A stretch of DNA of 64,000 nucleotides, from the NCBI RefSeq assembly GCF_058153355.1, contig NZ_CM177019.1. One strand, 5' to 3'. Both the position numbers and the translations under genes were made by a program. This document shows positions 7,900-33,616 of this stretch, one piece after another. The notes beneath the pieces were generated by a model. The model had not been told where the DNA came from, did not search any database, and worked only from the letters and a program-made list of their open reading frames with translations. The number at the start of each line of letters is the position of its first letter. The first letter of the stretch is position 1.

Positions 7900-15888
<7,989 letters not shown>

Positions 15889-16196
15889 GCTTACCTTCCC
15901 TGAACGAGCTAACATAAATGCGCCCTTTCTAGCACAGCGAAAAAATATAAATCCTGATAGCAATATGATTGAAAATTAATAACTTTTCGTTAAGCAGTTT
16001 TGGGTGTGAGTTGCAAGAGGGGAGACTACTGAATAACTCAAGTTTTATAATCGAGGGGAAAATGGTGATGGTGTCCATAGCAAAACGCCCTCAACCATAA
16101 AGATCGAGGGCGCTTAAGATGTCAAAAACCCGCTATCCGTTAAAAAGCAATGCTCAACTAAGGTCAGTGACATTGCGCTAAAAAGCGAATTTTTAG

Positions 16197-16216
16197 AATT
16201 TGGCTCCTCTGACTGG
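16197..16216. repeat. island boundary direct repeat (duplicate of tRNA-Asn 3' end, AATTTGGCTCCTCTGACTGG)
   Basis: Identical 20-mer recurs at 33537-33556, overlapping the 3' end of the minus-strand tRNA-Asn. Confidence 0.75.
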
Positions 16217-16367
16217 GATCGCCGTAGCCATTAACTGGCTGATTGGTAAGCTAAACCTAAAAGTTGGGGTTGTCAAGACCACCAGAATGACCACCTCTTT
16301 ACTTTGAAACTAACGACATATTTTACGCTCATCCCTCAGTCAATCGTAAGCTAATAAACAACACCAA

Positions 16368-16748
16368 CTACGGTGCTGGTATTATAGTCTCTGCTCCAAA
16401 CCAATTTCCAAGTGTTGTCAGTGCCGCAGGTGACAAAGCTTGGGTGAAAAGGATCGCAAGGCGCTTTTGGGGTCTGGAACAAGCGACGTAAAACAAATTT
16501 CGGTTTCGTTCAAATGAGTCTTGCTTATCGACTGGAATCGTTTGGGCTCCAGCGAATTCCAACATTTCTCCGAAGTTATACTGGTTCCACCCACGCCCAA
16601 CAACAACCAGGACATTCTCAAATTCAGCACCTTTCACACCATGTTTAGTTTCGAATGGAGAATATCCATCAAGATAACGGCGAAGTGATCTGACCTCCGA
16701 ATAGGGAATATTTTTCAGCTTTTCAAGTTCTTTTAATCTTCGGGGCAT
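16368..16748 (-). CDS. UvrD/PcrA-like SF1 helicase, C-terminal segment
   Basis: Carries helicase motif V/VI-like sequences (KGAEFENVLVV, YVACSRPQKRL); same reading frame as 16794-18122, separated by a single TAA. Confidence 0.6.
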   Translation of the reverse strand: MPRRLKELEKLKNIPYSEVRSLRRYLDGYSPFETKHGVKGAEFENVLVVVGRGWNQYNFGEMLEFAGAQTIPVDKQDSFERNRNLFYVACSRPQKRLAILFTQALSPAALTTLGNWFGAETIIPAP

Positions 16749-16793
16749 TTCAACATCAGCCGTTCTGTCAAAATGGAGTAACTCCTGCTCAAA

Positions 16794-18122
16794 TTATTCA
16801 ACCTTATCTGGAAGTCTTGGCTTCCGTTGAGCACGGATGAACTCAATTACGTCGCCAATTGTACCAGTTTCGCGGAGAGCAAGAAGTTGCGTCATTACAT
16901 TGTGCCAACTCACCTTATCTGAATGTCTACGCAACAGTGGTGTAATACCGCCAAGCGCATTAAACATCTCTCCATACTTACGAGCGGTAAAGGCATCACA
17001 GGCGGGTTCCAGTTTGTCTACAAAAAAGGCTATATGTTCATGTTCCTTTTTCGTGAAGGATTCATTGTATTTAAACGCTGCCACTATATTTGAATAGCCC
17101 TGCTGATTGGCTAAAAGTCGATGGGTCAACATGAGAATTTTGGTGTGATTGGGAGAAAAGTCCCAACCATCCTGCTCCAACGTTGTTTTAACTCGTTCCA
17201 GAGTAGCCTGGCCTTCACATAATGGTAAATCACCACTCCAGTGCACGCCTTTTTGACGAACTCCTTGCCAATTGTTTGTATGGAAAACGCGTACTAAACC
17301 TGTAGCTTCGGGATCTTTAACACACTGCGGTAGCTCAGGTCTCATACGATTAAGGGCATCAACAATTATCTTGTCCGAACGAAAATTGGCTTCTTTACCT
17401 ATTTCAACCACGTCCTGATGTTCCAGCTTTCCACATCCACCACCATAGATTTTTTGCCAATGGTCGCCGAAAAAACCAAATAAAGGTGCTCTAGCTTGTC
17501 CAAGAAAATGCCGTTTAATTGCCTCAATCCAGTTTTTATCAGTGTCCTGGTACTCATCGACCAGAATGATTGGAAAGCGTTCTGCAATCACTCTACGGAA
17601 TTTTTCGTGCTCCATGAGTGAGACAGTTAAAGAAAGAACATCGTCATGATGAAGAGTTATACGATGGTCGCGAATAGAGCGATGTCCAAGATTATACTCA
17701 ACACTACGATTCCCAAGGCTTCCACCAACTTCTTCGAGCTTTTCTGTCCATGTTGGCATTGTCTCAATCAGTTCTCTCAACGGTTTTTGAAAGCTGCTTA
17801 TTAACGACCAACAGAACGCATGATTGGTATCACAAAAAACGATGGGGCTTCGATCTGTTCGCGCGACGATTTCATCCTTCGCCACGTTAGTAAAGGTGAT
17901 GCAGGCAATTTGCTGGCTACGTTTTTCAAATAAATCCTTATTTCGCTCAATCAAGAATCGAAGTGCCTTAATAAGGGAATACGTTTTACCCGCACCAGCG
18001 CCAGCTTCCAGCCGGAAGCTTCGTCCTTCACTGAGGCAAGCATACATAGATTCCAAAGCTCGCTGGCTAGCAGCTTCGGCGGGCGAATGGATCTCAGACA
18101 TCAGCGCTGGCTCCTTCTTCAA
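16794..18122 (-). CDS. UvrD/PcrA-like SF1 helicase, N-terminal segment
   Basis: Walker A GAGAGKTY, motif II ILVDEYQDT, motif III-like FFGDHWQKIY; start overlaps the upstream OLD-family gene by 29 nt. Confidence 0.7.
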   Translation of the reverse strand: MKKEPALMSEIHSPAEAASQRALESMYACLSEGRSFRLEAGAGAGKTYSLIKALRFLIERNKDLFEKRSQQIACITFTNVAKDEIVARTDRSPIVFCDTNHAFCWSLISSFQKPLRELIETMPTWTEKLEEVGGSLGNRSVEYNLGHRSIRDHRITLHHDDVLSLTVSLMEHEKFRRVIAERFPIILVDEYQDTDKNWIEAIKRHFLGQARAPLFGFFGDHWQKIYGGGCGKLEHQDVVEIGKEANFRSDKIIVDALNRMRPELPQCVKDPEATGLVRVFHTNNWQGVRQKGVHWSGDLPLCEGQATLERVKTTLEQDGWDFSPNHTKILMLTHRLLANQQGYSNIVAAFKYNESFTKKEHEHIAFFVDKLEPACDAFTARKYGEMFNALGGITPLLRRHSDKVSWHNVMTQLLALRETGTIGDVIEFIRAQRKPRLPDKVE

Positions 18123-20166
18123 TACTAGTTGTGGCTTCTACAACTTGCGCCAATACTGGATCTTGTGTCATAAGCTCATTGCTGCCAGCTAACCAGCGGA
18201 TTCCATCGACTATGTATTTGGGGGCGTTCCATTCTGTCTCTGTAATCGCGTATTTCAATGCAAATTCTGATTTTTTCCACTCAGACGCTTTATCACGGGC
18301 TTCTATTTCCAGTTCCTGAGAATTTCTCCCTACCAGCCCGAATAAAGCCGAATTTGCAAGGATAAATGCATCTTCGAATGTGCGTCCGCAGGGGCCATCT
18401 GTCACTTCTGCACATTGATAGGCAATACGATTTCCATTACGAGCTTTATCATCGTCACTCCTGGCAATCAAACCAGCTAATGTGAAAGGGGTATCTTCAG
18501 AGAACCATGCTTTCAAACAAGCATTACTGGAATATGTACCAAGATGAACAGCACATGCCTGACCTCCTGCTCTTTGGACTGCGTCCAGATCTGTTATGAT
18601 CAGACTCTGAAGCTCAAGAAACGCTAATAACTCGAAGAACAAATGAGCGTAAGCACCGCCGACTTCCATCACCGTTGCGTACTGGCTCGACAGCTTCGGT
18701 CTCTCTGGTTCGGCTGATTCTAGTTTTTTGATGATGACGGGAAGCAATAATCGCTCGCTTAACCCCTCGACGAGAATCGCTTTATCTGCGAAAAACAGAT
18801 CACAACGTGTCAACGTCATGTATTGATGAAGGAATTTTTTATCTTCAATTAGAATATGATTCAGCCCTTTACGCAGATCTTTAATTTTGGTTTTTCGGAC
18901 ACCTTCCTGAGTCCCCTGTGCTGGAGCCCCCAGAAAATAGCGAATACTCTCGAAACCAGCCGCATTGGCAATGTGAGACGAGTGTGTAGACACGACAAAT
19001 TGTACAGGCCAGGGTCTCCTGTCCTCAGTGCCATCCACCAGTTGTTGTGCAATTTTGGCAAGTTGACGAATAAAAACCTCCTGCATTTGTGGATGCAGAT
19101 GGGCTTCTGGTTCTTCAATGAATATCAGGTGTACACCCGGCTCAGTAACTTCAGCACAAAATGCTTTATAGAAACCAGCTAATTGCAAGAGAATAAATAT
19201 CAGATTACGTGTACCAAGACCGTTATATGACTCCGGTAATGCGATTCCGCTATAACCTGAATAGCGAACTTTCGTGAAGTTTGATAGCAACTTGCTAACA
19301 TCGAGCAATGTTTCAGTATGTAACTCCTGTCCTCCCAATCCTGGGTATCCAAAAGTTTCTAGAGCCGGAATCAGACTGTTGAGCTGGTTTCCGAAGTTTG
19401 TGTCAATTTGAGTCTGAATGTCCTGAACTGCACCTTTCAATGCATCAGCAATTTGTTTATCAGCAGCTCCCGCAGATGCCGAAGAGGCTGTTGCGAAAAG
19501 ATTTTCAACCGTTTTAGCCAGTACATCGGATTCTCGGGACGTCACATCATCAAGTCCTCGCTGAGCGTTGATAAAGCCCGATTTGACCAGACCGCGCAAT
19601 GCACTAGGTGGTAACTCGCGACGATTATCAGGATCGTTGGGATCTTCAGCCCATATTTTCACACAGAAATTATTAGGGATACGTTCTCGCAATATACGGA
19701 GGAAAGCGAGGCGGTCTTCTCTAGAAAGTGGCATTTCAGTCTGACTTTCGAGAAATTGTGTCAGATGGCCATCTTTCAATTCGTATCGGACTACTACCTG
19801 CGCTTCAGAACACGCGGGATCCAAATCGATAACAAAGGGACTCAATGGACCTAATTGAGGTTGTGCAGGGTCGTACTGGAATTTCAGTCGAAGTTCAATG
19901 GCGGGAATAAGTTCTCGAACGAGATGATCTTCCATGCCTTCCTTAAGTGCTTCCAGAACATCACAAAAACGGTCGTAGCAGGAACTGGAAAAGTCTTCAA
20001 GTTGGAAAGTAGCACTACCATCTGCTAAGAATCTGCGTATTATTTCTGAGAGTGATGTTTTTCCGCTGTTGTTTCGTCCAACAATGACGGTCGTCTGTTC
20101 CTCCAATACAAGCTCTGCATCAGCTAAAAGACGGAAGTTTTTAATTTCGACCTGATGAATGTGCAT
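18094..20166 (-). CDS. OLD-family ATP-dependent endonuclease (ABC ATPase plus TOPRIM), GajA-like
   Basis: 690 aa; Walker A GRNNSGKTS, Walker B/D-loop LIFIEEPEAHLHP, H-loop STHSSH, TOPRIM-like AILVEGLSE and ITDLD. Confidence 0.7.
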   Translation of the reverse strand: MHIHQVEIKNFRLLADAELVLEEQTTVIVGRNNSGKTSLSEIIRRFLADGSATFQLEDFSSSCYDRFCDVLEALKEGMEDHLVRELIPAIELRLKFQYDPAQPQLGPLSPFVIDLDPACSEAQVVVRYELKDGHLTQFLESQTEMPLSREDRLAFLRILRERIPNNFCVKIWAEDPNDPDNRRELPPSALRGLVKSGFINAQRGLDDVTSRESDVLAKTVENLFATASSASAGAADKQIADALKGAVQDIQTQIDTNFGNQLNSLIPALETFGYPGLGGQELHTETLLDVSKLLSNFTKVRYSGYSGIALPESYNGLGTRNLIFILLQLAGFYKAFCAEVTEPGVHLIFIEEPEAHLHPQMQEVFIRQLAKIAQQLVDGTEDRRPWPVQFVVSTHSSHIANAAGFESIRYFLGAPAQGTQEGVRKTKIKDLRKGLNHILIEDKKFLHQYMTLTRCDLFFADKAILVEGLSERLLLPVIIKKLESAEPERPKLSSQYATVMEVGGAYAHLFFELLAFLELQSLIITDLDAVQRAGGQACAVHLGTYSSNACLKAWFSEDTPFTLAGLIARSDDDKARNGNRIAYQCAEVTDGPCGRTFEDAFILANSALFGLVGRNSQELEIEARDKASEWKKSEFALKYAITETEWNAPKYIVDGIRWLAGSNELMTQDPVLAQVVEATTSIEEGASADV

Positions 20167-20303
20167 ATGTCCCTCATGATCTATTTATAGTCTATCGATA
20201 AATCTGATGTTATTGCTCTACCTGTAATTTTCATTCTTACGATTGTTTTGCAATGCAAAATATACCTCAGGCCATATTTATTCCTGAGGTATGTTTTGGT
20301 ATC

Positions 20304-21824
20304 TCACTCGGTCAAAGAGGCCTCACGAACATCATCCGGTTGAGGTTGGCACTCTTTCCATCGTCGAATAAGCGTTGCTACACAGGGATTACCCGCCAGT
20401 TGATTCATTCTGACCCAGTCAACATCCACTAATCCAGCCAGAAGTTCAGGATTTAGTTCCCCTTGTAATGGGTGCCACTGGCGAATACTGGGCTGGCGCT
20501 GAATTTGAGGTTGAAGGGGAGCCAAACTCCCGACGATAACGTAATTTTGTTCTGGATCATGCCAGAGTCGTGTAATGCCAGGTATGTTTTTCAACCAGTT
20601 TCGAGGATCACCTAAAGGTAAATCAAAAACACGAGAGAGTAATTTATTCCATGACGCTATTAATGACGAACTGGCTTTCTTTGCCAATTTTTTCTCACCT
20701 GCCAGGAGTGCATTTTTTCTTTCTGGCCATTTGGAAAAAATATAACTTTTTAAAATATCGTAGGTAACATTAAGTTCATTATTGTAATAATACTCACGCA
20801 AAGCACAATTCCACAACTCGCACAGCAAGTCTAGTTCACGCATGAGTGTATTTTTATTGGTATCTGATAATTCACCTTCCTCATTAAGTTGCGCTATATA
20901 AAAAGACAGTATCTTTGTATCTGGTAAGAGCCAGTGGTTTAGTGAGAACTGCTGACTTTGAGTATCAAGAACAGTCATTAATGCATCTAAATTCTCAGGG
21001 ATCATATTAGGGGTGTCGTATTTCGGATCCTGAAGAAGAATGGATATTTCTTCCATTCTATGAATAATTATTGTCAATCTCTGAGCAAATCTGGTTAATT
21101 TATCTTCACTGCTGCCAAAACCTTGCGCTATTGATTCAGGCCGATAAGTATAAGGCCATTTTTTATTTAAGAGAGTAAGAAGAGCCTCGACAGAGGTATC
21201 AAACAGTTTCAGCCTTTCATCGCAGGCTTTAACTAAATCCGGGCAAGAAGGATTAAAAGGTAAAATTACTGGGCGGTCTTGTTCAGCGGTGAATAAATAT
21301 CCTTCGGTGATAACCAATAGGTCATGAGTCAGTAAGTCTTTCTGTTCTGTCAGGCTTGTACTGATTCTTGTTTCTTTGCAAAGTAAAAGATGCTTCAACG
21401 CAAGTTCTTTGTACGCAACTTCGGTATTACGCGCCAATGCATCAAGACAGGTCTTTTTCTCAAGATCTTGAATGGCATAGTCGTAATAGCAAGAATCTAT
21501 CGCAGGGATGAGTCGGGTAGTCCCATCGGGAGTATCCTGCTCAATCAATAAATTATCAACAACAGAATCACCACTAAGATCAAACGGATTAACGTTGATA
21601 TGCTGGCACGCAATTTTAGTTCTTAGATTCTGAGTTAACGGATAGCGGTCATCAATTATACCACGGATCTGATCTAACAAAACAAGTATGCATATAGAGC
21701 TGTCTTTTTCCAATTTTTCAAATGATGAGGGTTCTGAATCCGGTAATAATTCCAGCTGTACATCAGGATACTTTTTGTTCAACACCTTTTGTATCTGCGC
21801 ACTTCCCCGTGAAACCCGGGTCAT
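20304..21824 (-). CDS. hypothetical protein, no recognisable motif; 5' end lies in IS66-derived sequence
   Basis: Long ORF (track 20304-22004); only in-frame Met codons are inside the IS66 tnpC remnant, so the native N-terminus is probably lost. Confidence 0.4.
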
Positions 21825-22843
21825 CCAACCGGAAGAAGAATGCTGCCCGGCCTGTGGTGGCGGGCTCAGTCCTCTGGGATGTGATGTGTCAGAACAACTG
21901 GAGCTTATCAGCAGCGCCTTTAAGGTTATCGAAACACAACGTCCGAAACTGGCCTGTTGCCGGTGCGACCATATCGTGCAGGCTCCGGTGCCTTCAAAAC
22001 CCATTGCACGCAGTTATGCCGGAGCGGGGCTTCTGGCCCATGTTGTCGCTGGAAAATATGCAGACCATCTGCCGTTATACCGCCAGTCAGAAATATACCG
22101 TCGTCAGGGCGTGGAGCTGAGCCGTGCCACACTGGGGCGCTGGACAGGTGCTGTTGCTGAACTGCTGGAACCGCTGTATGACATCCTGCGCCAGTATGTG
22201 CTGATGCCCGGTAAAGTCCATGCCGATGATATCCCCGTTCCGGTCCAGGAGCCGGGCAGCGGTAAAACAAGGACTGCCCGGCTGTGGGTCTACGTTCGTG
22301 ATGACCGTAACGCCGGTTCGGAAATGCCTCCGGCGGTCTGGTTCGCGTACAGCCCGGACCGGAAAGGTATCCATCCACAGAATCATCTGGCCGGTTACAG
22401 CGGAGTGCTTCAGGCCGATGCTTACGGTGGTTACCGGGCGTTGTACGAATCCGGCAGAATAACGGAAGCCGCATGTATGGCTCATGCCCGGAGAAAAATC
22501 CACGATGTGCATGCAAGAGTGCCCACCGACATCACCACGGAAGCCCTGCAGCGTATCGGTGAACTGTATGCCATCGAGGCAGAGGTCCGGGGCTGTTCAG
22601 CAGAACAGCGTCTGGCGGCAAGAAAAGCCAGAGCCGCGCCACTGATGCAGTCACTGTATGACTGGATACAGCAACAGATGAAAACACTGTCGCGTCACTC
22701 GGACACGGCAAAAGCGTTCGCATACCTGCTGAAACAGTGGGATGCACTGAACGTGTACTGCAGTAATGGCTGGGTGGAAATCGACAACAACATCGCAGAG
22801 AACGCCTTACGGGGAGTGGCCGTAGGCCGGAAAAACTGGCTCT

Positions 22844-24667
22844 GTGTGTCACGAAGGAGTACTTATGGCAACAATGTGAAAATTGCAGCATAAGTTATCC
22901 ATGCTCTGAGGTGGGTGGAGGTGGGCCCTCCGGTCAGGGTTTACAGGAGCACTGACCAAACGACCCGGTGCTGCTTCATTCTAAGGAATGAGGTGGTGAG
23001 CGACTCGGGAAAAGGCAGAGATCTACTGTCACGTGGGGTTCGGGAAGCTGAACGAAAGTAAACTGTCCGATGAAGCATCGAAATCTTAGATGATGTCAAA
23101 ATGGGGCCGTACAGCCGTCCCCTGATAAGCGCAGAAGACACCTGCTTACTGACTGCGCGGCATCCGGTGTGAAGGCAGCAGGATCCCGGGCCAGACCATC
23201 TCAGGGAACGTGAGAACCTGTTTCCGGCACGTATCGGGAAACAGGGGCGGACCCATTCGTAGTAGTGATGAAAGATCTGTAATGGGTCTGGAGCGAAGGG
23301 ATGGGGATCACATTCATTGCAGAAGACACAACCCAAAAGGGGATGACGTAACTGATGCAACGAAAATCATTTGAAATACCAAAAGCACTGGTCTGGGCAT
23401 CATATCTGGATGTGCGTCGCAACAAGGGAGCCCCCGGATGCGACGGGCAGACTTTGAAAATGTTCGACCAGCAACGTGATGGCAATCTATACAAGATCTG
23501 GAACCGGCTATGTTCGGGAACATGGTTTCCGCCACCAGTGCTGGAAAAACGGATCCCGAAGTCGAATGGCAAGGAACGCATTCTGGGGATCCCAACAGTA
23601 TCCGATCGAATTGCTCAGGGAGCGATAAAACTTTTCATGGAAGAAAAGCTTGACCCGATTTTCCATGCTGATTCATATGGTTACCGACCAGGCAAATCAG
23701 CTCATGACGCTCTGAAACAATGTGCCATCCGGTGCTGGCGTTATAGCTGGATACTGGAAGTGGACATCAGTGCGTTTTTCGACCATGTGAGACATGATCT
23801 GGTGCTCAAAGCTCTGGAACACCACGGGATGCCTAAATGGGTCATCCTGTACTGTCGACGCTGGATGGAAGCGCCAATGCAGAGTTGTGAAAATGGAGAA
23901 TTAATAACCCGAACACGAGGCACTCCGCAGGGCGGGGTCATTAGTCCACTACTTGCTAACTTGTTCCTTCACTATGCATTTGATTTGTGGATGGAAAGAG
24001 AATATCGGGGGGTACCGTTTGAGAGGTACGCTGACGATATTGTAGTACATTGTTCACGAATGAGTGATGCAACAAGGCTGAAGAACAGGTTATCGGAGCG
24101 CTTCTCGGAAGTCGGGCTGGTCCTGAATGCAGGGAAAACGAATATCGCCTACATTGACACGTTTAAAAGGAGAAACGTCGCAACGAGTTTCACCTTTCTC
24201 GGATATGACTTCAAAGTGCGTACGCTGAAGAATTTCAAAGGCGAACTGTACCGAAAATGCATGCCGGGTGCGTCAAATGCAGCAATGCGCAAAATAACAG
24301 AAACAATCAAGAAGTGGCGTATACATCGCTCAACAGCTGAGAGTTTGCTGGATTTTGCGAGGCGCTACAATGCGATAGTGAGAGGCTGGATCGAGTACTA
24401 CGGAAAGTTCTGGTCCAGAAATTTCAACTATCGACTGTGGAGTGCAATGCAGTCACGTCTGCTCAAGTGGATGCAGTCTAAATACAGACTTTCGAACCGG
24501 AAGGCTCAGCGAAAGCTGACGCTGGTAAGGAAGGAGTATCCGAAGCTATTTGTTCACTGGTATTTACTACGTGCATCAAATGAGTGATCAAGAGCCGTAT
24601 GACGCGAGAGTGTCACGTACGGTTCCGTGAGCAGCCGGGGAGTGAAATTCTCTCCGGCTGACTCGAC
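22844..24667 (+). mobile_element. group II intron (~1.8 kb) with intron-encoded reverse transcriptase
   Basis: 5' GTGTG start; domain V-like GAGCCGTATGACGCGAGAGTGTCACGTACGGTTC near 3' end; joining the flanks restores the TnpC frame (KNWL-FAGSDSGG). Confidence 0.7.
23355..24587 (+). CDS. group II intron reverse transcriptase/maturase
   Basis: 410 aa with RT motifs including YADD and a C-terminal maturase-like region. Confidence 0.8.
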   Translation: MQRKSFEIPKALVWASYLDVRRNKGAPGCDGQTLKMFDQQRDGNLYKIWNRLCSGTWFPPPVLEKRIPKSNGKERILGIPTVSDRIAQGAIKLFMEEKLDPIFHADSYGYRPGKSAHDALKQCAIRCWRYSWILEVDISAFFDHVRHDLVLKALEHHGMPKWVILYCRRWMEAPMQSCENGELITRTRGTPQGGVISPLLANLFLHYAFDLWMEREYRGVPFERYADDIVVHCSRMSDATRLKNRLSERFSEVGLVLNAGKTNIAYIDTFKRRNVATSFTFLGYDFKVRTLKNFKGELYRKCMPGASNAAMRKITETIKKWRIHRSTAESLLDFARRYNAIVRGWIEYYGKFWSRNFNYRLWSAMQSRLLKWMQSKYRLSNRKAQRKLTLVRKEYPKLFVHWYLLRASNE

Positions 24668-24852
24668 TCGCAGGTTCCGACAGCGGTGGCGAACATGCGG
24701 CGGTGTTGTACTCGCTGATCGGCACATGCCGTCTGAACAATGTGGGGCCAGAAAAATGGCTGCGTTACGTCATTGAGCATATCCAGGACTGGCCGGCAAA
24801 CCGGGTACGCGATCTGTTGCCCTGGAAAGTTGATCTGAGCTCTCAGTAAATA

Positions 24853-26796
24853 TCAATACGGTTCTGGCGAGCCGCTTACGTTTAATCGGGAAATCTCATA
24901 TTTTCGGTTCATCATTAATGGCAGAAGGAAGCGTTGATGCTGTTGACGAGAAATTTCACCAGCACGGAGCAGTTTTTCTAGGTTGCGTAACTGGAAACCC
25001 GCATGCGCCATATCATCATTGTTCTCTGTATTGGCCTGAAAAGCGGAAAAGTAATAATGCCGTGATTCCAGCAAATATAAACAGGTCAGATCCATATTTT
25101 TGCCAGATTCAGGCAGGCTGAAATCCAGATTCACACCATTCGTCGCAGAGGCGGTCTGAGTCAGCACAATGACAATACGCCGGGAGGCAAATGCGGCCTG
25201 ATAAGCATCACTAAAGCCCTTTTTCTTCTGACATTCTGCGGTTAACAGACAAATCAGCGCAGGCTCATTATGTATGCTCACTGGGATAAACACATCAGCA
25301 AAATTTTTTAGTAGAGGATCATCAGATAAAGGTTGTTCCATTTTTAACCATGCGAGGTATTCTCTACTTTGTGTTGCTATTGTAGTGGTAAGCCATTTTC
25401 TTAAATAGGCTATGGAATTCACGAAAGCAAGATGCCCCCGGTGTTGAGGTCTTTTTCCCGCAAGATCCAATACATTAAGCAATTTTAGCAGTATATTTTT
25501 TCGATATTCTGATTCGAAATCTGATGAGGGGTCATCGCCATTCTGGAAAAAATCGGGGGCTAGCGAAGCGAGCAGATCAACACAATGCGGGTTATTCTTT
25601 ATGCTATTGAAATCTTGAATCTCAGCATTCAGTTGTGTGTTTCTGATATTTTCTTTGCTGTTATTGATCTCTTCAATAGCTAAATACTGCAACTGGAAAT
25701 CATCAGCCGTCTGGACATAAGGTATCGGTTCTTTAAACCACTCGACAGGTCGTTTTTCAAAAGTTGTTCCCAGAAAACTTTGTGTAACAGCAGGGTTGCG
25801 TGCTTCTGCAATATAACGAAGAGCTGAATTAATCCACCGGACATCGAAGTGATTACAGGCTCTTTCAATATATGACGTAGCCGACAGTGCAAAGACAAGA
25901 TTACGACTGGCGAGAGAAAGCAGCAGACCTTCTGCCGTCGTGGGCAGAAAGGCACGTTTGATCTGTATCCGTAACGGATCGATATCCGTATCTGAGACAT
26001 TCTGTTTCAGCAACCAATTGGTCAAGCCAAAAATACTGGCATGAGTATTTGGCAAAATATTACTTTTCCTTAATTCCCGTAGTTCCGGCAGGTCAGTACG
26101 CGGTAACAAAAATCGGGACATATTGGGCAGGGTTGAGCCGTAGTATGAAGGCCTGTAATCATTAACGGGGTCGAACAGAAGTCGGGTTAACTTTTTAATG
26201 TATTCATACGCTTCATCTTCACTTGCAGTCAGGTCGGTCAACATTAGGCTAAACTGTCGAATGAATTTTTCCATCAAGCGTAAAAAATCACTGATGTCGA
26301 TAGTCTGATCGCTATCCTGAAGCGGAGAGTCTGGCCTGATAATTTCGTATCCATGTTCCGCTTTCCGCATAATAAGCCGTTCACTGGTCACCAGTTGATC
26401 GGAACGGAATAAATAATGCTCACCAAAGGGTTTATTATCCAGATATTGCTGAAGAGGAATAACCAGCGATCTGGCATGTGTTAAATCAGCATGTTTTTCT
26501 GTTAATGCACTATCCAGATCATTAATAAATTTTTCTAGACGTTCACGGATCATAGGTGCAGGTTCCATTTCAACATACTGCATACGTTGTAGTAATCTGC
26601 GTCCCCCGTCGAGCAACTGACCCAGACACTCAGGTGGTTCCTGAACCCATTGCGCCTGTGCCAGATACTCTTGTAATACCTCAGACTGGTAATCAAATTC
26701 ATCGATGAAAATGATGTAATTACGCAGCTCTTTGCTGGACATTTTTACTTTGCGACGCCCATCGTAAAACGATGAAACCATCTTTTGAGTCGTCAT
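24853..26796 (-). CDS. hypothetical large protein, downstream part of a split P-loop NTPase; Walker-B-like IIFIDEFD near N-terminus
   Basis: 647-aa ORF; stop codon lies inside the IS66 terminal repeat; starts 2 nt after the stop of 26799-27572 in another frame. Confidence 0.45.
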   Translation of the reverse strand: MTTQKMVSSFYDGRRKVKMSSKELRNYIIFIDEFDYQSEVLQEYLAQAQWVQEPPECLGQLLDGGRRLLQRMQYVEMEPAPMIRERLEKFINDLDSALTEKHADLTHARSLVIPLQQYLDNKPFGEHYLFRSDQLVTSERLIMRKAEHGYEIIRPDSPLQDSDQTIDISDFLRLMEKFIRQFSLMLTDLTASEDEAYEYIKKLTRLLFDPVNDYRPSYYGSTLPNMSRFLLPRTDLPELRELRKSNILPNTHASIFGLTNWLLKQNVSDTDIDPLRIQIKRAFLPTTAEGLLLSLASRNLVFALSATSYIERACNHFDVRWINSALRYIAEARNPAVTQSFLGTTFEKRPVEWFKEPIPYVQTADDFQLQYLAIEEINNSKENIRNTQLNAEIQDFNSIKNNPHCVDLLASLAPDFFQNGDDPSSDFESEYRKNILLKLLNVLDLAGKRPQHRGHLAFVNSIAYLRKWLTTTIATQSREYLAWLKMEQPLSDDPLLKNFADVFIPVSIHNEPALICLLTAECQKKKGFSDAYQAAFASRRIVIVLTQTASATNGVNLDFSLPESGKNMDLTCLYLLESRHYYFSAFQANTENNDDMAHAGFQLRNLEKLLRAGEISRQQHQRFLLPLMMNRKYEISRLNVSGSPEPY

Positions 26797-26798
26797 GA

Positions 26799-27572
26799 TC
26801 AGCAGGTGTTGCTTTTCGTCACGCCAGGCAATGGCGGGCAGAATGCGCCTGACCCAGACGTGGCGACGGAAATCTGCAACTCGTTGCCTGGCTTGGCTGC
26901 CTGCGTGAGTTCATGTTCTTCGCCATATTTTTCTTTTTGTTTCTTGGCTTCTTTTTCCAGCAATTTGATATTCTGAATCAGAGTTATCTCCACCGCTGCG
27001 CATGATTTGATTAATGACTCTTTCTCACTGGCGATGGCCGTCTGAAAACGCGTCGGATATCCTTTCAGCGATTTGTTAATATGCAGTATGTTTTTGCAAT
27101 TTCTACGCAATTTGTCGGCGATATCCTGAATGGCAAACAAATTTCTGTCTTCCAGGATATTGATGGAGTCAAATGGATCGGGAAGTGAGTCTGCGGAAAT
27201 ATTATTCTCATGAGGCAAGGGGGTGGCCTCGATGGCAGAAACGATCTGTTCATCTTGTGCATAGAGCACGCTGACGGTGAATGGTTCCCCGTTACTGTCT
27301 TTATGCGCTGCCGTTTTCTCATAAATGTCGTGCAAAATATTCCAGCGATGGGTAACCAGAATGGCTTGAGAGCCTGATTTTTTTATCGTCTCCAGCGCCG
27401 GGAGAGCGTTATCGGCATAGCCAGAGCGGTAGAGTGAGCTGGTTTTTCCGCTACCCGTAGGCCCCTGAAGCTGACAAAATCCTGCGATACGACGGGATGT
27501 TTTGGATTTTTTTGCCTGAGAAAGGGTGTATTCAATAACGGCATTGTAGGAACGTATTAAAGGGGCACTCAC
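26799..27572 (-). CDS. P-loop NTPase N-terminal segment (Walker A GPTGSGKTS)
   Basis: 257-aa ORF with Walker A near residue 40; low-complexity C-terminal tail suggests a frameshift into the next ORF. Confidence 0.45.
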   Translation of the reverse strand: MSAPLIRSYNAVIEYTLSQAKKSKTSRRIAGFCQLQGPTGSGKTSSLYRSGYADNALPALETIKKSGSQAILVTHRWNILHDIYEKTAAHKDSNGEPFTVSVLYAQDEQIVSAIEATPLPHENNISADSLPDPFDSINILEDRNLFAIQDIADKLRRNCKNILHINKSLKGYPTRFQTAIASEKESLIKSCAAVEITLIQNIKLLEKEAKKQKEKYGEEHELTQAAKPGNELQISVATSGSGAFCPPLPGVTKSNTC

Positions 27573-27885
27573 ATTTCACCTCATCCGTGTCAGGTTATCG
27601 AAGAGTAGAATTTCAGCAAATTCATGTTACACCGAACGGGTATCATTTCAATGTTTAATAATAATTTCCCCTTATAAAACAACGCTTATAATACATTCGC
27701 AGGTCAGATGATTTATCGGTGTGTTATTTGTTTGAATTTGGTGTTGTGGTTTTCTTTTTTTAACAATCTTCGATCTTCCTTCCACGACTTCCCCTTGCCG
27801 TTTTCAACCGAAAGCGGTATCTTTCACTTGCACCTGCAAAATCAGGTGCCGGGATTGGAACCCCGAAATGTAACCATACTGGCGA

Positions 27886-27910
27886 CACGTGACGCGTCTG
27901 CGTCTTTTTT
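27886..27910 (+). terminator. hairpin plus T-run (GACGCGTCTGCGTC-TTTTTTT)
   Basis: Short GC stem followed by seven T on the plus strand. Confidence 0.35.
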
Positions 27911-28075
27911 TATGTCGCGCGCTTAGCTACACCAAAATTATGGTGGGCTGGGCGGGGGCACCGTAAGGTGCGCCGGTTCCAGTATGGCCGGTAGTTCCAA
28001 CCTCGTTCAGTCCACCACCCATGAGATTGGAACCTCTGGTGGTGGTTTTCAAACCACATACTGGAGGCTGCCTTT

Positions 28076-28543
28076 ATGGCTACGATCCCCACTCAGACAC
28101 ACCCGTTACTTGCTGTTCCCTTCAATGCTGCCACAGATTTTACCGTACTGGCAGACCACTGTGAAAACTTCGCCGAAACCCTGATCGAAAGCGACGACCC
28201 GGTGCTGCGGCTGGCGCTTTGCGGGCGGCTTGCCGCCTGTCTGACTCTGCTGCAACCCACGCTGAACGAACCCATCCCGTCCCATCTGACTGACAGCCTG
28301 ACCGTTGATGCTCTACCTGCCGATATGCCCCGATTTGTCCCCGACGCTGAATTACTTTGTGACTACTCACTGACGCTGGCGCAACTTCTTATCGGGCAGG
28401 GGATGCTGCCAAAAATGGAGCAGACGATAACTGGCTTATTATGTGAACTGGTCTGGTATTTTGCCGCTGAAATGAAAGCCCCGCGTTGGCTGCGTACTGC
28501 CGGTGGCGTGAAGTTTATCGATGGTGTGGAGGCCAAAGCATGA
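28076..28543 (+). CDS. hypothetical protein (155 aa), translationally coupled to Ner-like gene
   Basis: ORF with no recognised motif; stop overlaps the next start. Confidence 0.4.
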   Translation: MATIPTQTHPLLAVPFNAATDFTVLADHCENFAETLIESDDPVLRLALCGRLAACLTLLQPTLNEPIPSHLTDSLTVDALPADMPRFVPDAELLCDYSLTLAQLLIGQGMLPKMEQTITGLLCELVWYFAAEMKAPRWLRTAGGVKFIDGVEAKA

Positions 28544-28746
28544 TGCAGTCTGACTGGCATCCTGCCGACATTATCGCCGGGCTGAAAAAACGTGGCACTT
28601 CGCTGTCAGCGCTTTCGCGTCAGGCTGGGCTGGCGTCCTCCACGCTGGCTAATGCGCTTACCCGCCGCTGGCCCAAAGGTGAAAGATTGATTGCCGAAGC
28701 GTTAGATGTTGCGCCTGAGAACATCTGGCCTTCGCGCTATCGCTGA
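28540..28746 (+). CDS. Ner/Nlp-family HTH DNA-binding protein
   Basis: MMQSDWHPADIIAGLKKRGTSLSALSRQAGLASSTLANAL...WPSRY resembles Nlp/Ner; start placed at internal Met of ORF 28486-28746. Confidence 0.6.
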   Translation: MMQSDWHPADIIAGLKKRGTSLSALSRQAGLASSTLANALTRRWPKGERLIAEALDVAPENIWPSRYR

Positions 28747-28892
28747 TGTCCTTCCGGCGCAGCCACGATACGGAAGCTGCGCCGCATTTCGTTTATCTGA
28801 TTTGTCATAATCCTTTGAACCGCAAAAACAGTTTTCTATTATCGGCCTTCTTACCACGAACTAAGCTCCCGCCTGTACAAAATGCTTCATGA

Positions 28893-28920
28893 CCTGAAAG
28901 AAGCGCCTGATGTATCAGGA
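28893..28920 (+). repeat. imperfect direct repeat copy 1 (CCTGAAAGAAGCGCCTG...TATCAGGA) upstream of pemI
   Basis: About 30 bp shared with a second copy at 29862-29889. Confidence 0.45.
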
Positions 28921-29093
28921 TGGTCGCCGTTTTACCGGCAATGCCGCCTTTGAAAACTGCCGGATCTGTCCTTCGATGGATTAAGGCTTTCTTCATACTT
29001 TATTACGCTAAGGAAATCACAATGAATCTGATGAATAATTGTGCATCGCCTGCCGTAGATGTTATATTAAAATATAATATTCGGAGGTGCTCT

Positions 29094-29351
29094 ATGTATA
29101 CAACTCGCCTGAAAAAGGTCGGCGGATCCATCATGCTGGCGGTTCCCCCCGCCGTGCTGAAAACGCTGGAGCTGTCGACGGACAGCGAAGTGGGTATGAC
29201 CATTGATAATGGCTGCCTGATTATTGAACCCCAGAAACGGCCCCGTTATTCGCTTGAGGAGCTGTTGGCGCAGTGCGATCCGCACGCAGAAATGAGCGAA
29301 GAGGATCGGGAATGGATTGATGCGCCTGCGGTGGGCAAGGAGATCCTGTAA
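29094..29351 (+). CDS. pemI: PemI/MazE-family antitoxin
   Basis: MYTTRLKKVGGSIMLAVPPAVLK...YSLEELLAQCDP closely resembles plasmid R100 PemI; start at internal Met of ORF 28920-29351. Confidence 0.8.
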   Translation: MYTTRLKKVGGSIMLAVPPAVLKTLELSTDSEVGMTIDNGCLIIEPQKRPRYSLEELLAQCDPHAEMSEEDREWIDAPAVGKEIL

Positions 29352-29684
29352 ATGGACAGAGGGGAAATCTGGCTGGTTTCACTGGATCCGATTGCAGGTC
29401 ACGAGCAAAGCGGAAAACGTCCGGTGCTTATCGTATCGAAGGCATCGTTTAACAAGCTGACCCGGCTACCCGTTGTTGTTCCCGTTACCAGCGGTGGAAA
29501 CTTCGCCCGTGCAGCCGGTTTTACCGTCTCACTGGACGGTGCGGGAACAAAAACAACGGGCGTTATTCGCTGCGACCAGCCCAGAACCATTGATATGGGA
29601 GCCCGGAGCGGAAAGCGACTGGAACGTATACCCGATGCTGTCGTGAATGAAGTGCTGGCCCGACTGGAGGCCATTCTGAGCTGA
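29352..29684 (+). CDS. pemK: PemK/MazF-family toxin
   Basis: MDRGEIWLVSLDPIAGHEQSGKRPVLIVS...LPVVVPVTSGGNFARAAGF closely resembles PemK. Confidence 0.85.
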   Translation: MDRGEIWLVSLDPIAGHEQSGKRPVLIVSKASFNKLTRLPVVVPVTSGGNFARAAGFTVSLDGAGTKTTGVIRCDQPRTIDMGARSGKRLERIPDAVVNEVLARLEAILS

Positions 29685-29861
29685 TGCTTTTTATGTAAAC
29701 TGAATGATGGCGCTGTCATATACAGCGCCATCATTTTTTATAACGACAAGTGATTAAAAAATCCTTTTGCAGGTAAAAACAGTTTTTCCTTTCTCCGCCA
29801 GCGGTACTGGCATAGTCTCCCCCTTGCCCTATGCTGTCGTTGACAGCGCCACGCTTCACAA

Positions 29862-29889
29862 CCTGAAAGAAGCGCCTGTTATCAGGAGG
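29862..29889 (+). repeat. imperfect direct repeat copy 2, downstream of pemK
   Basis: Matches 28893-28920 with a few mismatches; partial similarity extends ~40 bp further. Confidence 0.45.
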
Positions 29890-30119
29890 TTGAGCCCTTT
29901 ACCGGTGCAGACCTTTGCAAACACCGGGTCGCAGAACATCGCGACGGAGGCCAGAGTTTTAACACGATACGTCCTTTTACTGCGCCAGCCTGCTGGTCTG
30001 AATCTGCCCCGCGCCGGAATTTTCCCGGTCAGCTTATATTTGCTGACACCCTCAGCACCTTTTACCTCACGGGCTGCGGCATGCATTTGCCGCAAGGCAT
30101 TTGCTGACGCGTGCCCGTA

Positions 30120-30250
30120 AAACTGCACCAGACGGTAAATTTTCAGACGCTGCACCAGACCCGTGCGTCACTTTAACCGCGCAGAGCGGGAAAGTGACGC
30201 ACGCAATCCCTTTCGACCTGCACCAGAAAACTCAACTGCGCCAGCTCACG
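30120..30250 (-). repeat. array of CTGCACCAG/CTGCGCCAG motifs upstream of the recombinase gene
   Basis: At least four copies near 30123, 30149, 30220 and 30238, in opposite orientation to the array at 31618-31881. Confidence 0.45.
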
Positions 30251-30535
30251 GCTGGAGTCTGACACCGCCTTTTCAGGCCATTTACCTATAAGGAGAACAT
30301 GAATCGATACCGAGGCGGATCCGGACGATCCGGGGGATAACCCGCGCAAGCGGGCGGCTGCTCAGAGAGCACAACCGAAGCCCCACCACACCTCAACGGC
30401 TGCCGCCCCGGCGCTCAGGTATCGTTCGCAGCCCCGACAAAAAAACAGGGGCTATCGGCCTGTGCGCCGGGGAAAGCTGTATCAGTGTTGGTTTTTTGGG
30501 GGATGAGTTTGCGGCAATCATGAAAAGGGGAATGT

Positions 30536-31423
30536 ATGGGGATACTGGAGCAGGAAATGACGCGACTGGCGCAGCAGGCGGGTGGCAGCTACAAAACTGT
30601 GGATGACCGCATCAGGCTGGCGCAGCGGTTTTGTGAGCGTCTGGTTCTGGCGCAGAACGTACAAATCCGCCGGGTGGAGCAGCTTAAGGCGCGGCATATT
30701 GAAGGCTATGTTCGTGAACGGCTGGCGCAGGGCATCACAAAGCGTTCCCTGCAAAATGAGATGGCGGCGGTGCGCTGCATTCTGAAACAGGCCGGGCGTG
30801 ACAGGCTGGCGCAGAGTGAGCGGCTGAATAACCGCTCGCTGGGATTGTCCGGAGCATCCCGTAACGGGACGAAGCTGGCTATTACACTGGAGCACTATCG
30901 TGATGTGCTGGAGACCGCCCGCGTAAAAGATCCGGGGCTGGCGGCAGCGCTGGAGCTCTCAAGGTTGATGGGATTACGTTCGCAGGAGGCGGTGCAGAGT
31001 GTACAGTCGCTGAAAACGTGGATACAGGCGCTGGAGCGTGGTGAGTCCCGGTTAACCGTGGTGTTCGGCACCAAAGGCGGACGGCCCCGCGAGACGATTA
31101 TTCTTGATGCTGGCGTAGTTAAAAAAGCGCTGGATAATGCGCTGGTGGTGGCTGAGGATCGTCACGGCAGGCTGATAGATAAGCCCGATCTGAGAAGCGC
31201 GATGAAATACTGGCACAGCCAGGCGTCGGGTCTTGGTTTAACTGGCGCATATTCCCCGCACTCGTTGCGCTATGCCTGGGCGCAGGATGCTATTCGTCAT
31301 TATCTGGCGCAGGGATTTTGTGAGAAGGAAGCGCTGGCGATGACGGCGATGGATTTGGGTCACGGCGACGGGCGCGGGCGGTATGTGGCGCAGGTTTACG
31401 GGCGAAAGGGGGATGCTGATTGA
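30536..31423 (+). CDS. small tyrosine recombinase/integrase-family protein
   Basis: 295 aa; C-terminal HSLRYAWAQ box and candidate nucleophile in GRGRYVAQVYG; LAQ-rich N-terminal domain. Confidence 0.5.
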   Translation: MGILEQEMTRLAQQAGGSYKTVDDRIRLAQRFCERLVLAQNVQIRRVEQLKARHIEGYVRERLAQGITKRSLQNEMAAVRCILKQAGRDRLAQSERLNNRSLGLSGASRNGTKLAITLEHYRDVLETARVKDPGLAAALELSRLMGLRSQEAVQSVQSLKTWIQALERGESRLTVVFGTKGGRPRETIILDAGVVKKALDNALVVAEDRHGRLIDKPDLRSAMKYWHSQASGLGLTGAYSPHSLRYAWAQDAIRHYLAQGFCEKEALAMTAMDLGHGDGRGRYVAQVYGRKGDAD

Positions 31424-31446
31424 TAGCTTCAGACTTGCAATATGAT

Positions 31447-32005
31447 GTTATTCATCGTTTTCCGTACAAAATTATTTGCCTCAAATAATTTTGGGTGATT
31501 TCCTATTAATCCCGGGTTATTCATCGTTATTCACCGAAAAAATTTCTACGTAGAAATTTTTTGTTCGATTTCCTCTCAATAAAAATGCTTCTGAACGGTA
31601 TGGCCTATTAACAGGCCTCTGGTGCAGTATTACGGTATTTTACTGATGATTGCGCCAGCAAAAGGAAAAGGCCAAATAATGGTAAAGGGCGACTAAGGGT
31701 AACAGCGCCAGACCGGAAAGGGCCAAAAGGCTAAAAGGCCTTAACACTGGCGCAGTTTGATGTTTATCCAATAATATCTGGCGCAGTCCTGACATAGACA
31801 GGTGACAGCGGACTGGTGCAGTAAATGGTGACATTGAACTGGTGCGGATACGATGTATTGGGAAATCAGTTTCTGGTGCAGATTATCTGGCAGCTATCGT
31901 CTGGAGATTATTCACTGTGAATAATTTTCGTTATTTGCCTATTGATTCATAATATATTGATAGGTTTTCGTACAAAATTATTCTACGTCGAATAATTTTG
32001 TACGC
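31447..32005. promoter_or_regulatory. cluster of perfect palindromes (candidate operators or recombination sites)
   Basis: CAAAATTATTTG-CCT-CAAATAATTTTG (~31466-31492); 24-bp AAAAATTTCTACGTAGAAATTTTT (~31539-31565); ATTATTCAC-T-GTGAATAAT (~31907-31925); GTACAAAATTATTC...GAATAATTTTGTAC (~31969-32002). Confidence 0.5.
31618..31881 (+). repeat. array of CTGGYGCAG direct repeats at ~26-35 bp spacing
   Basis: Copies near 31618, 31747, 31778, 31813, 31839 and 31873. Confidence 0.5.
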
Positions 32006-32055
32006 TTTCCGATTAATAACCCAAAAGTTGAAGATAAATCCTTTCAATGTAAAAA

Positions 32056-32088
32056 GCAGATCCGGATTCAATCGGGATCTGCTTTTTC
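32056..32088. terminator. bidirectional hairpin terminator between recombinase region and integrase 3' end
   Basis: AAAAAGCAGATCCGGATTCAATCGGGATCTGCTTTTT: 10-bp stem flanked by A-run and T-run. Confidence 0.55.
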
Positions 32089-32116
32089 ATTCTTAACAAA
32101 TCATATTGCTACTGGC

Positions 32117-33379: not shown

Positions 33380-33540
33380 TTGGGGGTCACTCCAGAATCG
33401 AACCAACCTGACCCCAAATCTGACCACCAAATTAACCGGATGCGGAGGGAAAACTGAATACGCATCTGGAAAGATTTTCACGCTAACTTATTGAATCAAT
33501 ATCAAATAAAGACTAATAAGGTAGCGTAAGAATCGAAATT

Positions 33541-33616
33541 TGGCTCCTCTGACTGGACTCGAACCAGTGACATACGGATTAACAGTCCGCCGTTCTACCG
33601 ACTGAACTACAGAGGA
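33541..33616 (-). tRNA. asnT: tRNA-Asn (GUU), island integration target
   Basis: Exact reverse complement of the 76-nt tRNA-Asn at 1688-1763; symbol by synteny with yeeJ and mtfA. Confidence 0.9.

Follow-up and report, generated by a model that had tools for sequence, protein, structure and literature searches.

The gajAB locus on the minus strand of the window (the whole 64,000-nt stretch of contig NZ_CM177019.1, RefSeq assembly GCF_058153355.1, that we analysed) is very probably an anti-phage Gabija operon (GajA/GajB, Class 2 OLD) of a common long-form proteobacterial subfamily, carried as cargo of an island and most likely persisting as a defence-dead remnant. The pair is an ordinary, already catalogued Gabija in a decaying copy, Gabija by descent with a system that is not intact. 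We establish here its family identity and gene anatomy, the stop codon that interrupts gajB and the reproducibility of that stop, the borders of the island, and the decay of a neighbouring module (Table 1). gajA is followed by a UvrD-like helicase gene that overlaps it by 8 nt, and both proteins fit the curated PADLOC profiles for GajA and GajB, the helicase matching GajB models together with Pfam UvrD-helicase and UvrD_C. The initial annotation had proposed an OLD-family nuclease coupled to a UvrD-like helicase, as in Gabija, and every profile test that it suggested came out in favour of this identity. An NCBIfam search with GajA and GajB returned sub-threshold matches only, with no dedicated Gabija model reached by the pair. 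The 8-nt overlap, which at the sequence level implies translational coupling of the two genes, is identical in the loci of E. coli LF82, Salmonella, P. aeruginosa, Cupriavidus and P. frederiksbergensis, and the gajA-gajB tandem was kept in all five intact contexts examined, which come from Gamma- and Betaproteobacteria. A promoter scan upstream of gajA gave nothing convincing. RefSeq holds near-identical proteins from Salmonella and from both E. coli and E. albertii; among public Escherichia and Salmonella contigs, more than 500 carry this GajA and at least 1,000 this GajB.

Table 1. Features of the gajAB locus and its island (window coordinates).
Feature	Coordinates	Strand	Details
Left att repeat, island boundary	16197..16216	-	20-nt copy: tRNA-Asn 3′ end plus 4 nt
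gajB pseudogene, 577 codons, one in-frame stop	16368..18101	-	Colinear with intact orthologues
gajB C-terminal remnant, in-frame 126-aa ORF	16368..16748	-	Motif V/VI region (GVKGAEFENV, YVACSRPQKRL); PDLC00113 positions 453-575, E 2.1e-57
Premature stop TAA	16794..16796	-	Lys436 AAA in orthologues (codon 436 of 577)
gajB N-terminal fragment, 435 aa	16797..18101	-	Motifs I (AGAGAGKT), Ia, II (VDEYQD) and III; PDLC00113 positions 4-435, E 2.6e-203
gajA/gajB overlap	18094..18101	-	8 nt, ATGTCTGA; gajB ATG at 18101, gajA stop 18094-18096
gajA, intact 690-aa OLD-family (Class 2) ATPase-TOPRIM nuclease	18094..20166	-	ATG start; PADLOC, Pfam, AF2 and Foldseek
DdmE/ApsB-like Argonaute-like gene remnant, codons 321-818	20304..21800	-	tblastn against the LF82 818-aa protein
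DdmD/ApsA-like helicase-nuclease gene remnant	24880..27572	-	Frameshift near 26892, truncation at codon 896; motif set, ApsA comparison (PMC11096173)
tRNA-Asn (33541-33616) and right att repeat	33537..33616	-	Adjoins P4-type integrase gene 32117-33481

GajA and the long-form subfamily

GajA matches positions 1-672 of the 679 in PADLOC model PDLC00063 (E 3.4e-290), and Pfam detects AAA_15 (E 3.9e-33 and 5.2e-17), also AAA_21, AAA_23 and SMC_N, and OLD-like_TOPRIM (PF20469, residues 458-528, E 2.7e-15) over the stretch that holds ILVEG and IITDLD, bearing out the ABC ATPase motifs and the TOPRIM-like ILVEG/ITDLD region with which the 690-aa protein had initially been annotated. The ABC-type ATPase has its Walker A (GRNNSGKT, with K36), Walker B and H-loop residues (K36, E351/E352, H395), and the C-terminal TOPRIM domain has its conserved glutamate E467 and the DxD of D526/D528, in addition to E598 and K632; all of these are invariant among 80 full-length relatives (636-700 aa, median 675) and all are present here. 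The AF2 model of GajA (pLDDT 89, pTM 0.86), which includes a long helix at residues 234-271, has by Foldseek the overall fold of solved OLD proteins, helical dimerisation insertion of the ATPase included, and its top PDB matches are the B. cereus GajA (BcGajA) structures 8x5i, 8u7i and 8sm3 (E ~1e-18, best 1.4e-18), with Thermus scotoductus OLD (TsOLD) at 9.4e-18. In the region where the Class 2-specific insert of the TOPRIM domain would lie, the DxD (526-528) and E598 are separated by 70 residues, a spacing similar to that in BcGajA, but the model renders this stretch mostly as loops and short elements with no clear helical bundle. At the sequence level, phmmer relates GajA to BcGajA only remotely and over the TOPRIM region alone (E 3.5e-5), while the GajA family profile matches TsOLD best (E 5.7e-29), matches BcGajA at 6.4e-23, and also matches the TOPRIM domains of the Class 2 proteins BpOLD and XccOLD.

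The nuclease had been described as exceeding familiar GajA sizes by about 100 aa and as a possible distinct subtype. The excess is real when measured against the 578-aa BcGajA, but such a length is common within the family, whose members of 636-700 aa form a large group (589 clusters at 50% identity). The suggestion of a distinct subtype does not hold, as PDLC00063 fits over its full length, the best-matching PADLOC GajA models have 679, 736 and 670 positions, and more than 5,700 database proteins match the long-form GajA at E ≤ 1e-10. Profile alignment assigns most of the additional residues to the ATPase insertion, where profile positions 80-227 correspond to BcGajA residues 81-167, or ~60 extra positions in the N-terminal insertion of the long form. 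We considered whether these ~100 aa might form a new domain and rejected the idea, Pfam giving AAA_15 and TOPRIM only and AF2 placing no separate domain there. A Cys538/Cys593 pair within the TOPRIM insert is conserved in 61 of the 80 long-form proteins, and GajA of 636-700 aa was partnered by a 577-579-aa GajB in each of the five intact contexts. By these sequence comparisons, the 690-aa GajA represents a large subfamily that is already modelled, and no new subtype. That the locus represents an unrecognised, distinct subtype of Gabija-like pair that is both intact and functional, as its longer nuclease and remote similarity to BcGajA might suggest, is thus extremely improbable: thousands of relatives share its length, the added residues bring no further Pfam domain, and the in-frame stop in gajB refutes ‘intact’.

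The in-frame stop in gajB

No single translatable ORF covers gajB, as a TAA at codon 436 (K436*) splits the gene into 435-aa and 126-aa pieces. This interruption was overlooked by the initial annotation, whose span covers both pieces: the overlapping downstream SF1 helicase gene that it described does have the overlap and the UvrD/SF1 domains, but not the intact single frame it was given. Across 577 codons, the window gajB is colinear without gaps with the LF82 orthologue WP_001289508.1 and differs from it at 10 nt, one of which is the AAA to TAA change that sets the window allele apart from that of LF82; the two pieces together also follow the 579-position PADLOC GajB model PDLC00113. Stop aside, the window-lineage GajB carries only about three conservative derived changes, and with all invariant GajA positions unchanged the nonsense mutation looks recent. 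Assembly GCA_043012465.1 has exactly the same 3,799-nt gajAB sequence, two further assemblies have it with a single nucleotide changed, and because the same stop is found in these independent assemblies, sequencing error is excluded as its source. On two of the three matching contigs from other assemblies the gene is annotated as pieces of 435 and 126 aa, and the gajB fragments are deposited separately in NCBI (the 435-aa piece as HFG3511285.1).

The stop deprives GajB of its final 142 residues, among them the C-terminal portion of UvrD_C with the motif V/VI-like segments. In an intact orthologue, whose best solved-structure match is B. cereus GajB (BcGajB), Pfam finds UvrD-helicase and a UvrD_C at 344-553 that straddles the stop site. 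Both gajA and gajB are needed for defence in B. cereus Gabija (PMC10781630) and in P. aeruginosa PA14 Gabija (PMC12407980). As gajB is broken, the Gabija system is therefore most likely dead, a loss of defence that we infer from the loss of motifs. Intact gajA alone may keep some activity, and since the GajA contacts of BcGajB are made by its 1B domain (PMC10781630), the 435-aa fragment, retaining the N-terminal half of GajB, could by analogy still bind GajA.

Alternatively, the 435-aa and 126-aa products, the second made by reinitiation, might reassemble into an active helicase. The remnant keeps the reading frame, its ATG follows the stop at a distance of 45 nt, so that low-level reinitiation may occur, and it is otherwise undamaged, N553T being its sole substitution relative to LF82. 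However, no Shine-Dalgarno sequence is visible before this ATG, the 16 residues between stop and ATG would go missing, and intact relatives with examined context encode a single chain of 577-579 aa. The stop also stands in a TAA-T context, a strong terminator in E. coli translation. E. coli A13 carries a separate gajB nonsense mutation, W191*, beside an intact gajA, and this unrelated lesion suits random decay better than a designed split. We consider a working two-piece GajB very unlikely.

Relation to characterised OLD systems and the proposed mechanism

The nearest known system is that of E. coli LF82 (GajA WP_000547409.1, GajB WP_001289508.1; PADLOC PDLC00063 and PDLC00113), with the same genes on the same island. 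Positions 16300-20300 of the window are 99.2% identical to it in DNA, the two GajA proteins agree at all but 9 of 690 residues, and the gajA/gajB overlap is the same. The LF82 island, however, lies at a tRNA-Asn near hxlB whereas the window island occupies a different tRNA-Asn copy, near yeeJ, and the second defence module is destroyed in the window. The characterised Class 2 OLD prototype, B. cereus VD045 Gabija (PDB 8SM3, 8U7I, 8X5I), shares the ABC ATPase with a long helical insertion, the C-terminal TOPRIM domain and the adjacent UvrD-like SF1 helicase. Its GajA is the best Foldseek match at a TM of ~0.6 normalised to the target, and the acidic residues of the TOPRIM domain are similarly spaced, with E467, D526/D528, E598 and K632 here against E379, approximately D432/D434, D511 and K541 in BcGajA. 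The prototype is nevertheless only 14-19% identical and smaller in both subunits (GajA 578 against 690 aa, GajB 494 against 577 aa), and differs from the window copy in that the gajB of the latter is broken.

Other OLD classes fit less well. Class 1 proteins (TsOLD, 6P74; phage P2 Old) have the two-domain fold in common with GajA, and TsOLD is both its best sequence-profile match and among its top Foldseek matches, but Class 1 OLD proteins are stand-alone genes (PMC10568477), whereas a helicase gene is the partner in every intact context examined here. The PARIS AriA model (PADLOC PDLC02979) is matched over its full length (E 1.3e-52) but by GajA residues 1-400 only, and AriA and AriB, a Class 4 OLD relative, are separate chains, whereas GajA has both domains on one 690-aa chain. 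The Class 3 OLD effector of retron-Eco8 gives weak matches to GajA (NCBIfam score 52.5 against a cutoff of 250), and no retron reverse transcriptase or msr/msd ncRNA adjoins gajAB, the nearest reverse transcriptase being a group II intron maturase ~3 kb away.

A literature search found no experimental paper for the exact long-form subfamily; for the Gabija of LF82 it turned up nothing but a phage, LF82_P8. Two Gabija systems were rejected as tested precedents: that of E. coli ECOR49 is of the short type (GajA H317), and the PA14 GajB has the motif DESQ where DEYQ is found here. Because the tested systems differ from the long-form subfamily, the mechanism of the intact form is borrowed from the B. 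cereus proteins, at only ~15-19% identity. By this analogy, gajA and gajB would be translated in a coupled fashion through their overlap; GajA, an ABC-ATPase/TOPRIM nuclease, would form a tetrameric core onto which GajB, a UvrD-like SF1 helicase, would dock through its 1B domain, and the resulting 4:4 complex would cleave invading phage DNA, defence needing both proteins. The change of Lys436 from AAA to TAA removes the motif V/VI-like region and most likely leaves a defence-dead Gabija remnant on a decaying island.

The persistence of gajA, intact and with every invariant residue in place, raises a further alternative, in which the protein has been retained because it works independently of the helicase, as a Class 1-like OLD nuclease that stands alone or is perhaps modulated by truncated GajB. 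The family profile is at least as near to Class 1 TsOLD as to BcGajA, gajB nonsense mutations have arisen in two independent lineages (the window and A13) with gajA intact in both, and single-gene OLD proteins are reported to give phage phenotypes (PMC12392090, PMC13261556). Two events among ~20 genomes are, however, statistically not meaningful, the stop looks recent enough that gajA may simply have lacked time to decay, and other E. coli (H20-H23) retain only a 5′ remnant of gajA. In tested Gabija systems, moreover, GajA alone gave no defence (PMC12407980, PMC10781630). We regard this alternative as very unlikely. Also very unlikely is a broader reading in which cells tolerate the loss of gajB, or even benefit from it, as long as they retain gajA, GajA acting alone in a Class 1-like manner, perhaps with truncated GajB as regulator, or, in a milder version, in which the long form is mechanistically distinct, the Cys538/Cys593 pair and the enlarged ATPase insertion setting it apart from the B. 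cereus prototype. A Gabija that has most likely lost defence with the gajB stop is the reading we prefer.

Decay of the host island and its second module

The integrative island that carries gajAB spans ~17.4 kb and sits at a tRNA-Asn gene. The 16-nt att core that marks its borders has three copies in the window, where chance alone would give 0.01. The second cargo of the island is a DdmDE/ApsAB-like antiplasmid pair, a module separate from Gabija. By sequence, PADLOC, NCBIfam, PHROGs, Pfam and phmmer or profile searches against the PDB were all empty for this upstream pair, and fold search alone identified it as DdmE-like, the AF2 model of the intact DdmE-like protein matching DdmE at E 1.6e-20. 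We also considered whether the two large upstream ORFs might be accessories of Gabija, making a system of four genes, and rejected this: P. aeruginosa, Cupriavidus and P. frederiksbergensis have long-form gajAB with no such pair beside it, Alteromonas, a cyanobacterium and Spirochaeta have the pair but no gajAB next to it, and because each occurs without the other, the two are separate modules. In the window, the DdmDE/ApsAB-like pair has been destroyed: an IS66 fragment and a group II intron interrupt it, and it has also suffered a deletion and a frameshift. Rfam matches within the island are confined to group II intron domains, tRNAs, C4, isrK and EFASI.

The correct annotation of the locus is thus a Gabija with a gajB pseudogene, and beyond that its importance is small. 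A finder relying only on HMM scores would probably report a functional Gabija here, which is a small caution for defence-system censuses. The island also illustrates how fast defence islands can decay, with both cargo modules inactivated, one by a point mutation and the other by a group II intron together with an IS element and a frameshift. If GajA did prove to act as a stand-alone nuclease, the locus would bear on whether OLD nucleases require a helicase partner.

Gabija genes and a long GajA

The three open reading frames (ORFs) of the region are co-directional, all on the minus strand, and together with the minus-strand reading they establish as real both the 690-aa protein proposed in the initial annotation and its overlapping neighbour with helicase motifs. 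In this reading the end of gajA, which encodes the OLD-type ATPase-TOPRIM nuclease of Gabija, overlaps the start of gajB, which encodes its UvrD-like helicase partner, by 8 nt, ATGTCTGA, and the true gajB start is the ATG at 18101, preceded by AAGGAG. The helicase gene is interrupted, however, which the annotation did not mention: the 442-aa and 126-aa ORFs share a frame and are separated solely by a TAA at 16794–16796. PADLOC GajA model PDLC00063 (679 positions) covers GajA residues 1–672 (E 3.4e-290), with about two dozen other GajA models ranking below it, while GajB model PDLC00113 (579 positions) matches the longer gajB ORF over positions 4–435 (E 2.6e-203) and the shorter over positions 453–575 (E 2.1e-57). 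These matches bear out the Gabija call, though the locus is ordinary and belongs to a subfamily already catalogued and already known.

Features of the Gabija island and its flanks (window coordinates)
Feature	Position	Strand	Details
YeeJ-type inverse-autotransporter adhesin gene	7900–15963	-	2687 aa; directly outside island's left end
Island	16197–33616		integrative, ~17.4 kb; 20-nt direct repeat of tRNA-Asn 3′ end
Repeat copy, tRNA-Asn 3′ end plus 4 nt	33537–33556		
Other repeat copy	16197–16216		
gajB 3′ part (ORF)	16368–16748	-	126 aa
gajB 5′ part (ORF)	16794–18122	-	442 aa from first possible TTG
gajA (ORF)	18094–20166	-	690 aa, ATG start
DdmE-like pseudogene	20304–21800	-	only codons 321–818 left
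IS66-family and intron block	21802–24878		substitutes for about 2.2 kb of island relative to LF82
IS66-family transposase fragment	21688–22893 (ORF)		match from about 21802; interrupted by complete group II intron
Group II intron D1–D4	22917–23033		Rfam
Group II intron RT/maturase ORF	23355–24587		
Group II intron domains V/VI	24590–24667		
ApsA/DdmD-like pseudogene	24880–27572	-	frameshift near 26892, cut at codon 896
isrK, C4 and EFASI RNA matches	27830–28022 and 30299–30428	+	Rfam
Second integrase-domain gene	30536–31423		inside island
P4-type integrase gene	32117–33481		beside tRNA-Asn

GajA carries Pfam domains AAA_15 (E 3.9e-33 and 5.2e-17) and OLD-like_TOPRIM (residues 458–528, E 2.7e-15), the latter enclosing the ILVEG and IITDLD motifs. 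Solved proteins are remote in single-sequence search (Class 1 OLD of Thermus scotoductus, TsOLD, 7e-11; Bacillus cereus GajA, BcGajA, about 4e-5), and a profile of 80 relatives matches TsOLD (5.7e-29), BcGajA (6.4e-23) and the TOPRIM fragments of the Class 2 proteins BpOLD (2.6e-12) and XccOLD (1.5e-10). The first PDB matches of the AF2 model (pLDDT 89, pTM 0.86) are BcGajA chains (E 1.4e-18, target-normalised TM about 0.6), followed by TsOLD. The window protein has all of the residues that never vary among the 80 aligned sequences: Walker A K36, E351/E352, H-loop H395 and TOPRIM E467, D526, D528, E598 and K632. Two cysteines of the TOPRIM insert, Cys538 and Cys593 (window about 18388–18555), each recur in 61 of the 80 long-form GajA sequences and may pair up as a structural feature peculiar to this subfamily.

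The length of the nuclease had been read as a possible sign of a distinct subtype, but long GajA is common, and a new subtype is ruled out by family size, PADLOC model lengths and conserved pairing with GajB. More than 5,700 database proteins match at E ≤ 1e-10; the best 120 of these are 641–734 aa long, nearly all 681–700, and come from Escherichia, Salmonella, Serratia, Yersinia, Cupriavidus, Burkholderia, Ralstonia, Pseudomonas and others. Clustering at 50% gives 589 clusters at E ≤ 1e-30, and 80 full-length representatives span 636–700 aa (median 675); the best PADLOC GajA models have 679, 736 and 670 positions. Nor does the extra region amount to a new domain: relative to BcGajA (578 aa), about 60 positions of the excess lie in the N-terminal ATPase insertion (profile 80–227, BcGajA residues 81–167), about 20 more are scattered over the remaining ATPase and linker in the profile alignment, and a Pfam search found no domain beyond AAA_15 and TOPRIM. 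In all five intact contexts (E. coli LF82, Salmonella, a PAPI-1/pKLC102-type ICE of P. aeruginosa, Cupriavidus and P. frederiksbergensis), long gajA is followed by a 577–579-aa UvrD-like gene with the identical 8-nt overlap.

An integrative island with a second, ruined module

The gajAB pair forms the left end of an island bordered by a 20-nt direct repeat; LF82 carries the same island at a different tRNA-Asn neighbourhood, and Salmonella has it too. Within the island, Rfam matches include adjacent isrK and C4 antisense RNAs (71 and 83 bits) and an EFASI RNA (119 bits). The core flank, yeeO-amn-shiA-yeeJ, is only 90–95% identical to most E. coli, so by sequence the host is a divergent Escherichia, though labelled E. 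coli at NCBI. In matching contigs the YeeJ-type adhesin has IAT_beta, Big_1 and Invasin_D3 repeat domains. Farther along, at about 43000–64000 (+), there is a prophage-like run of co-directional ORFs with strongly positive GC skew, in which those of 585, 413 and 408 aa follow a terminase/portal-like order.

Two large genes, encoding 1300 and 818 aa, lie 5′ of gajA in LF82 (intact copy at 16005–22367 of that locus); neither protein matches PADLOC, NCBIfam, PHROGs or Pfam, or any PDB sequence. In Foldseek, the 818-aa protein as modelled by AF2 (pLDDT 85) resembles DdmE (E 1.6e-20), which is the Argonaute-like member of DdmDE, a plasmid-defence system; true Argonautes come next (about 1e-10). The helicase motifs of the 1300-aa protein are invariant and are joined by a D...DxK nuclease motif at the C-terminus; all are ordered as in ApsA of the E. 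coli ApsAB/DdmDE family (PMC11096173) and similarly spaced. The DdmE-like fold and the DdmD/ApsA helicase plus PD-(D/E)xK motif set make the pair a predicted DdmDE/ApsAB-family antiplasmid module, and a separate one, since it occurs without Gabija in Alteromonas, a cyanobacterium and Spirochaeta. Both genes are destroyed in the window by frameshift, deletion and insertion, and the gap between their remnants is occupied by a piece of an IS66 transposase gene with a group II intron inside it.

The gajB stop codon and the probable loss of Gabija defence

Intact LF82 GajB (577 aa) contains UvrD-helicase, AAA_19 and UvrD_C (the last across residues 344–553) in Pfam, and among solved structures is closest to B. 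cereus GajB chains, narrowly above Rep and also above UvrD1. The window gene differs from it at 10 nucleotides, with no gaps, one being the change of Lys436 from AAA to TAA (K436*). The truncated protein retains motifs I, Ia, II (VDEYQD) and III but loses its last 142 residues, including GVKGAEFENV and YVACSRPQKRL, which by inspection and general SF1 knowledge we take to be SF1 motifs V and VI. An exact-sequence look-up of GajA returned five contigs; in each of the three listed, gajAB is identical or 1 nt off and has the YeeJ-like adhesin gene beside it, as in the window, and the gene calls for two of these three show the 435 + 126 aa split. NCBI also lists the two fragments individually, under E. 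coli, as HFG3511285.1 and HFG3511284.1. K436* is therefore genuine and fixed in a small lineage. Judged from sequence it also looks recent: polarised against the P. aeruginosa orthologue, only about three GajB substitutions are derived in the window, all conservative, and GajA is unchanged at every invariant position.

Reinitiation after the stop could yield a two-piece helicase, but this has a low probability, as the remnant ATG has no Shine-Dalgarno sequence in front and every relative examined encodes a single chain. The full pair occurs in only 19 of 5,426 complete E. coli genomes, all at 99.2% identity, and four further E. coli (EC28, ECO20, ECO21 and S87) carry a gajA 5′ remnant alone (first ~1 kb). 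A second, independent gajB nonsense mutation is found in E. coli A13 (NZ_CP028761.1; W191*, TGG to TAG) with gajA intact. That GajA functions alone is likewise improbable, two gajB lesions in about 20 genomes not being significant.

In B. cereus, a GajA tetramer with GajB docked via its 1B domain forms a 4:4 complex that cuts phage DNA, and defence is lost in interface and active-site mutants (PMC10781630); in P. aeruginosa PA14, gajA and gajB are both necessary (PMC12407980). By analogy with these characterised systems, the intact long-form pair would be a nuclease-helicase defence targeting DNA. Gabija is undergoing repeated loss in E. coli, and the window holds a decaying copy with a gajB nonsense mutation, in which truncation would most likely abolish the ATP-driven helicase function and hence defence, and GajA may persist as an orphan.
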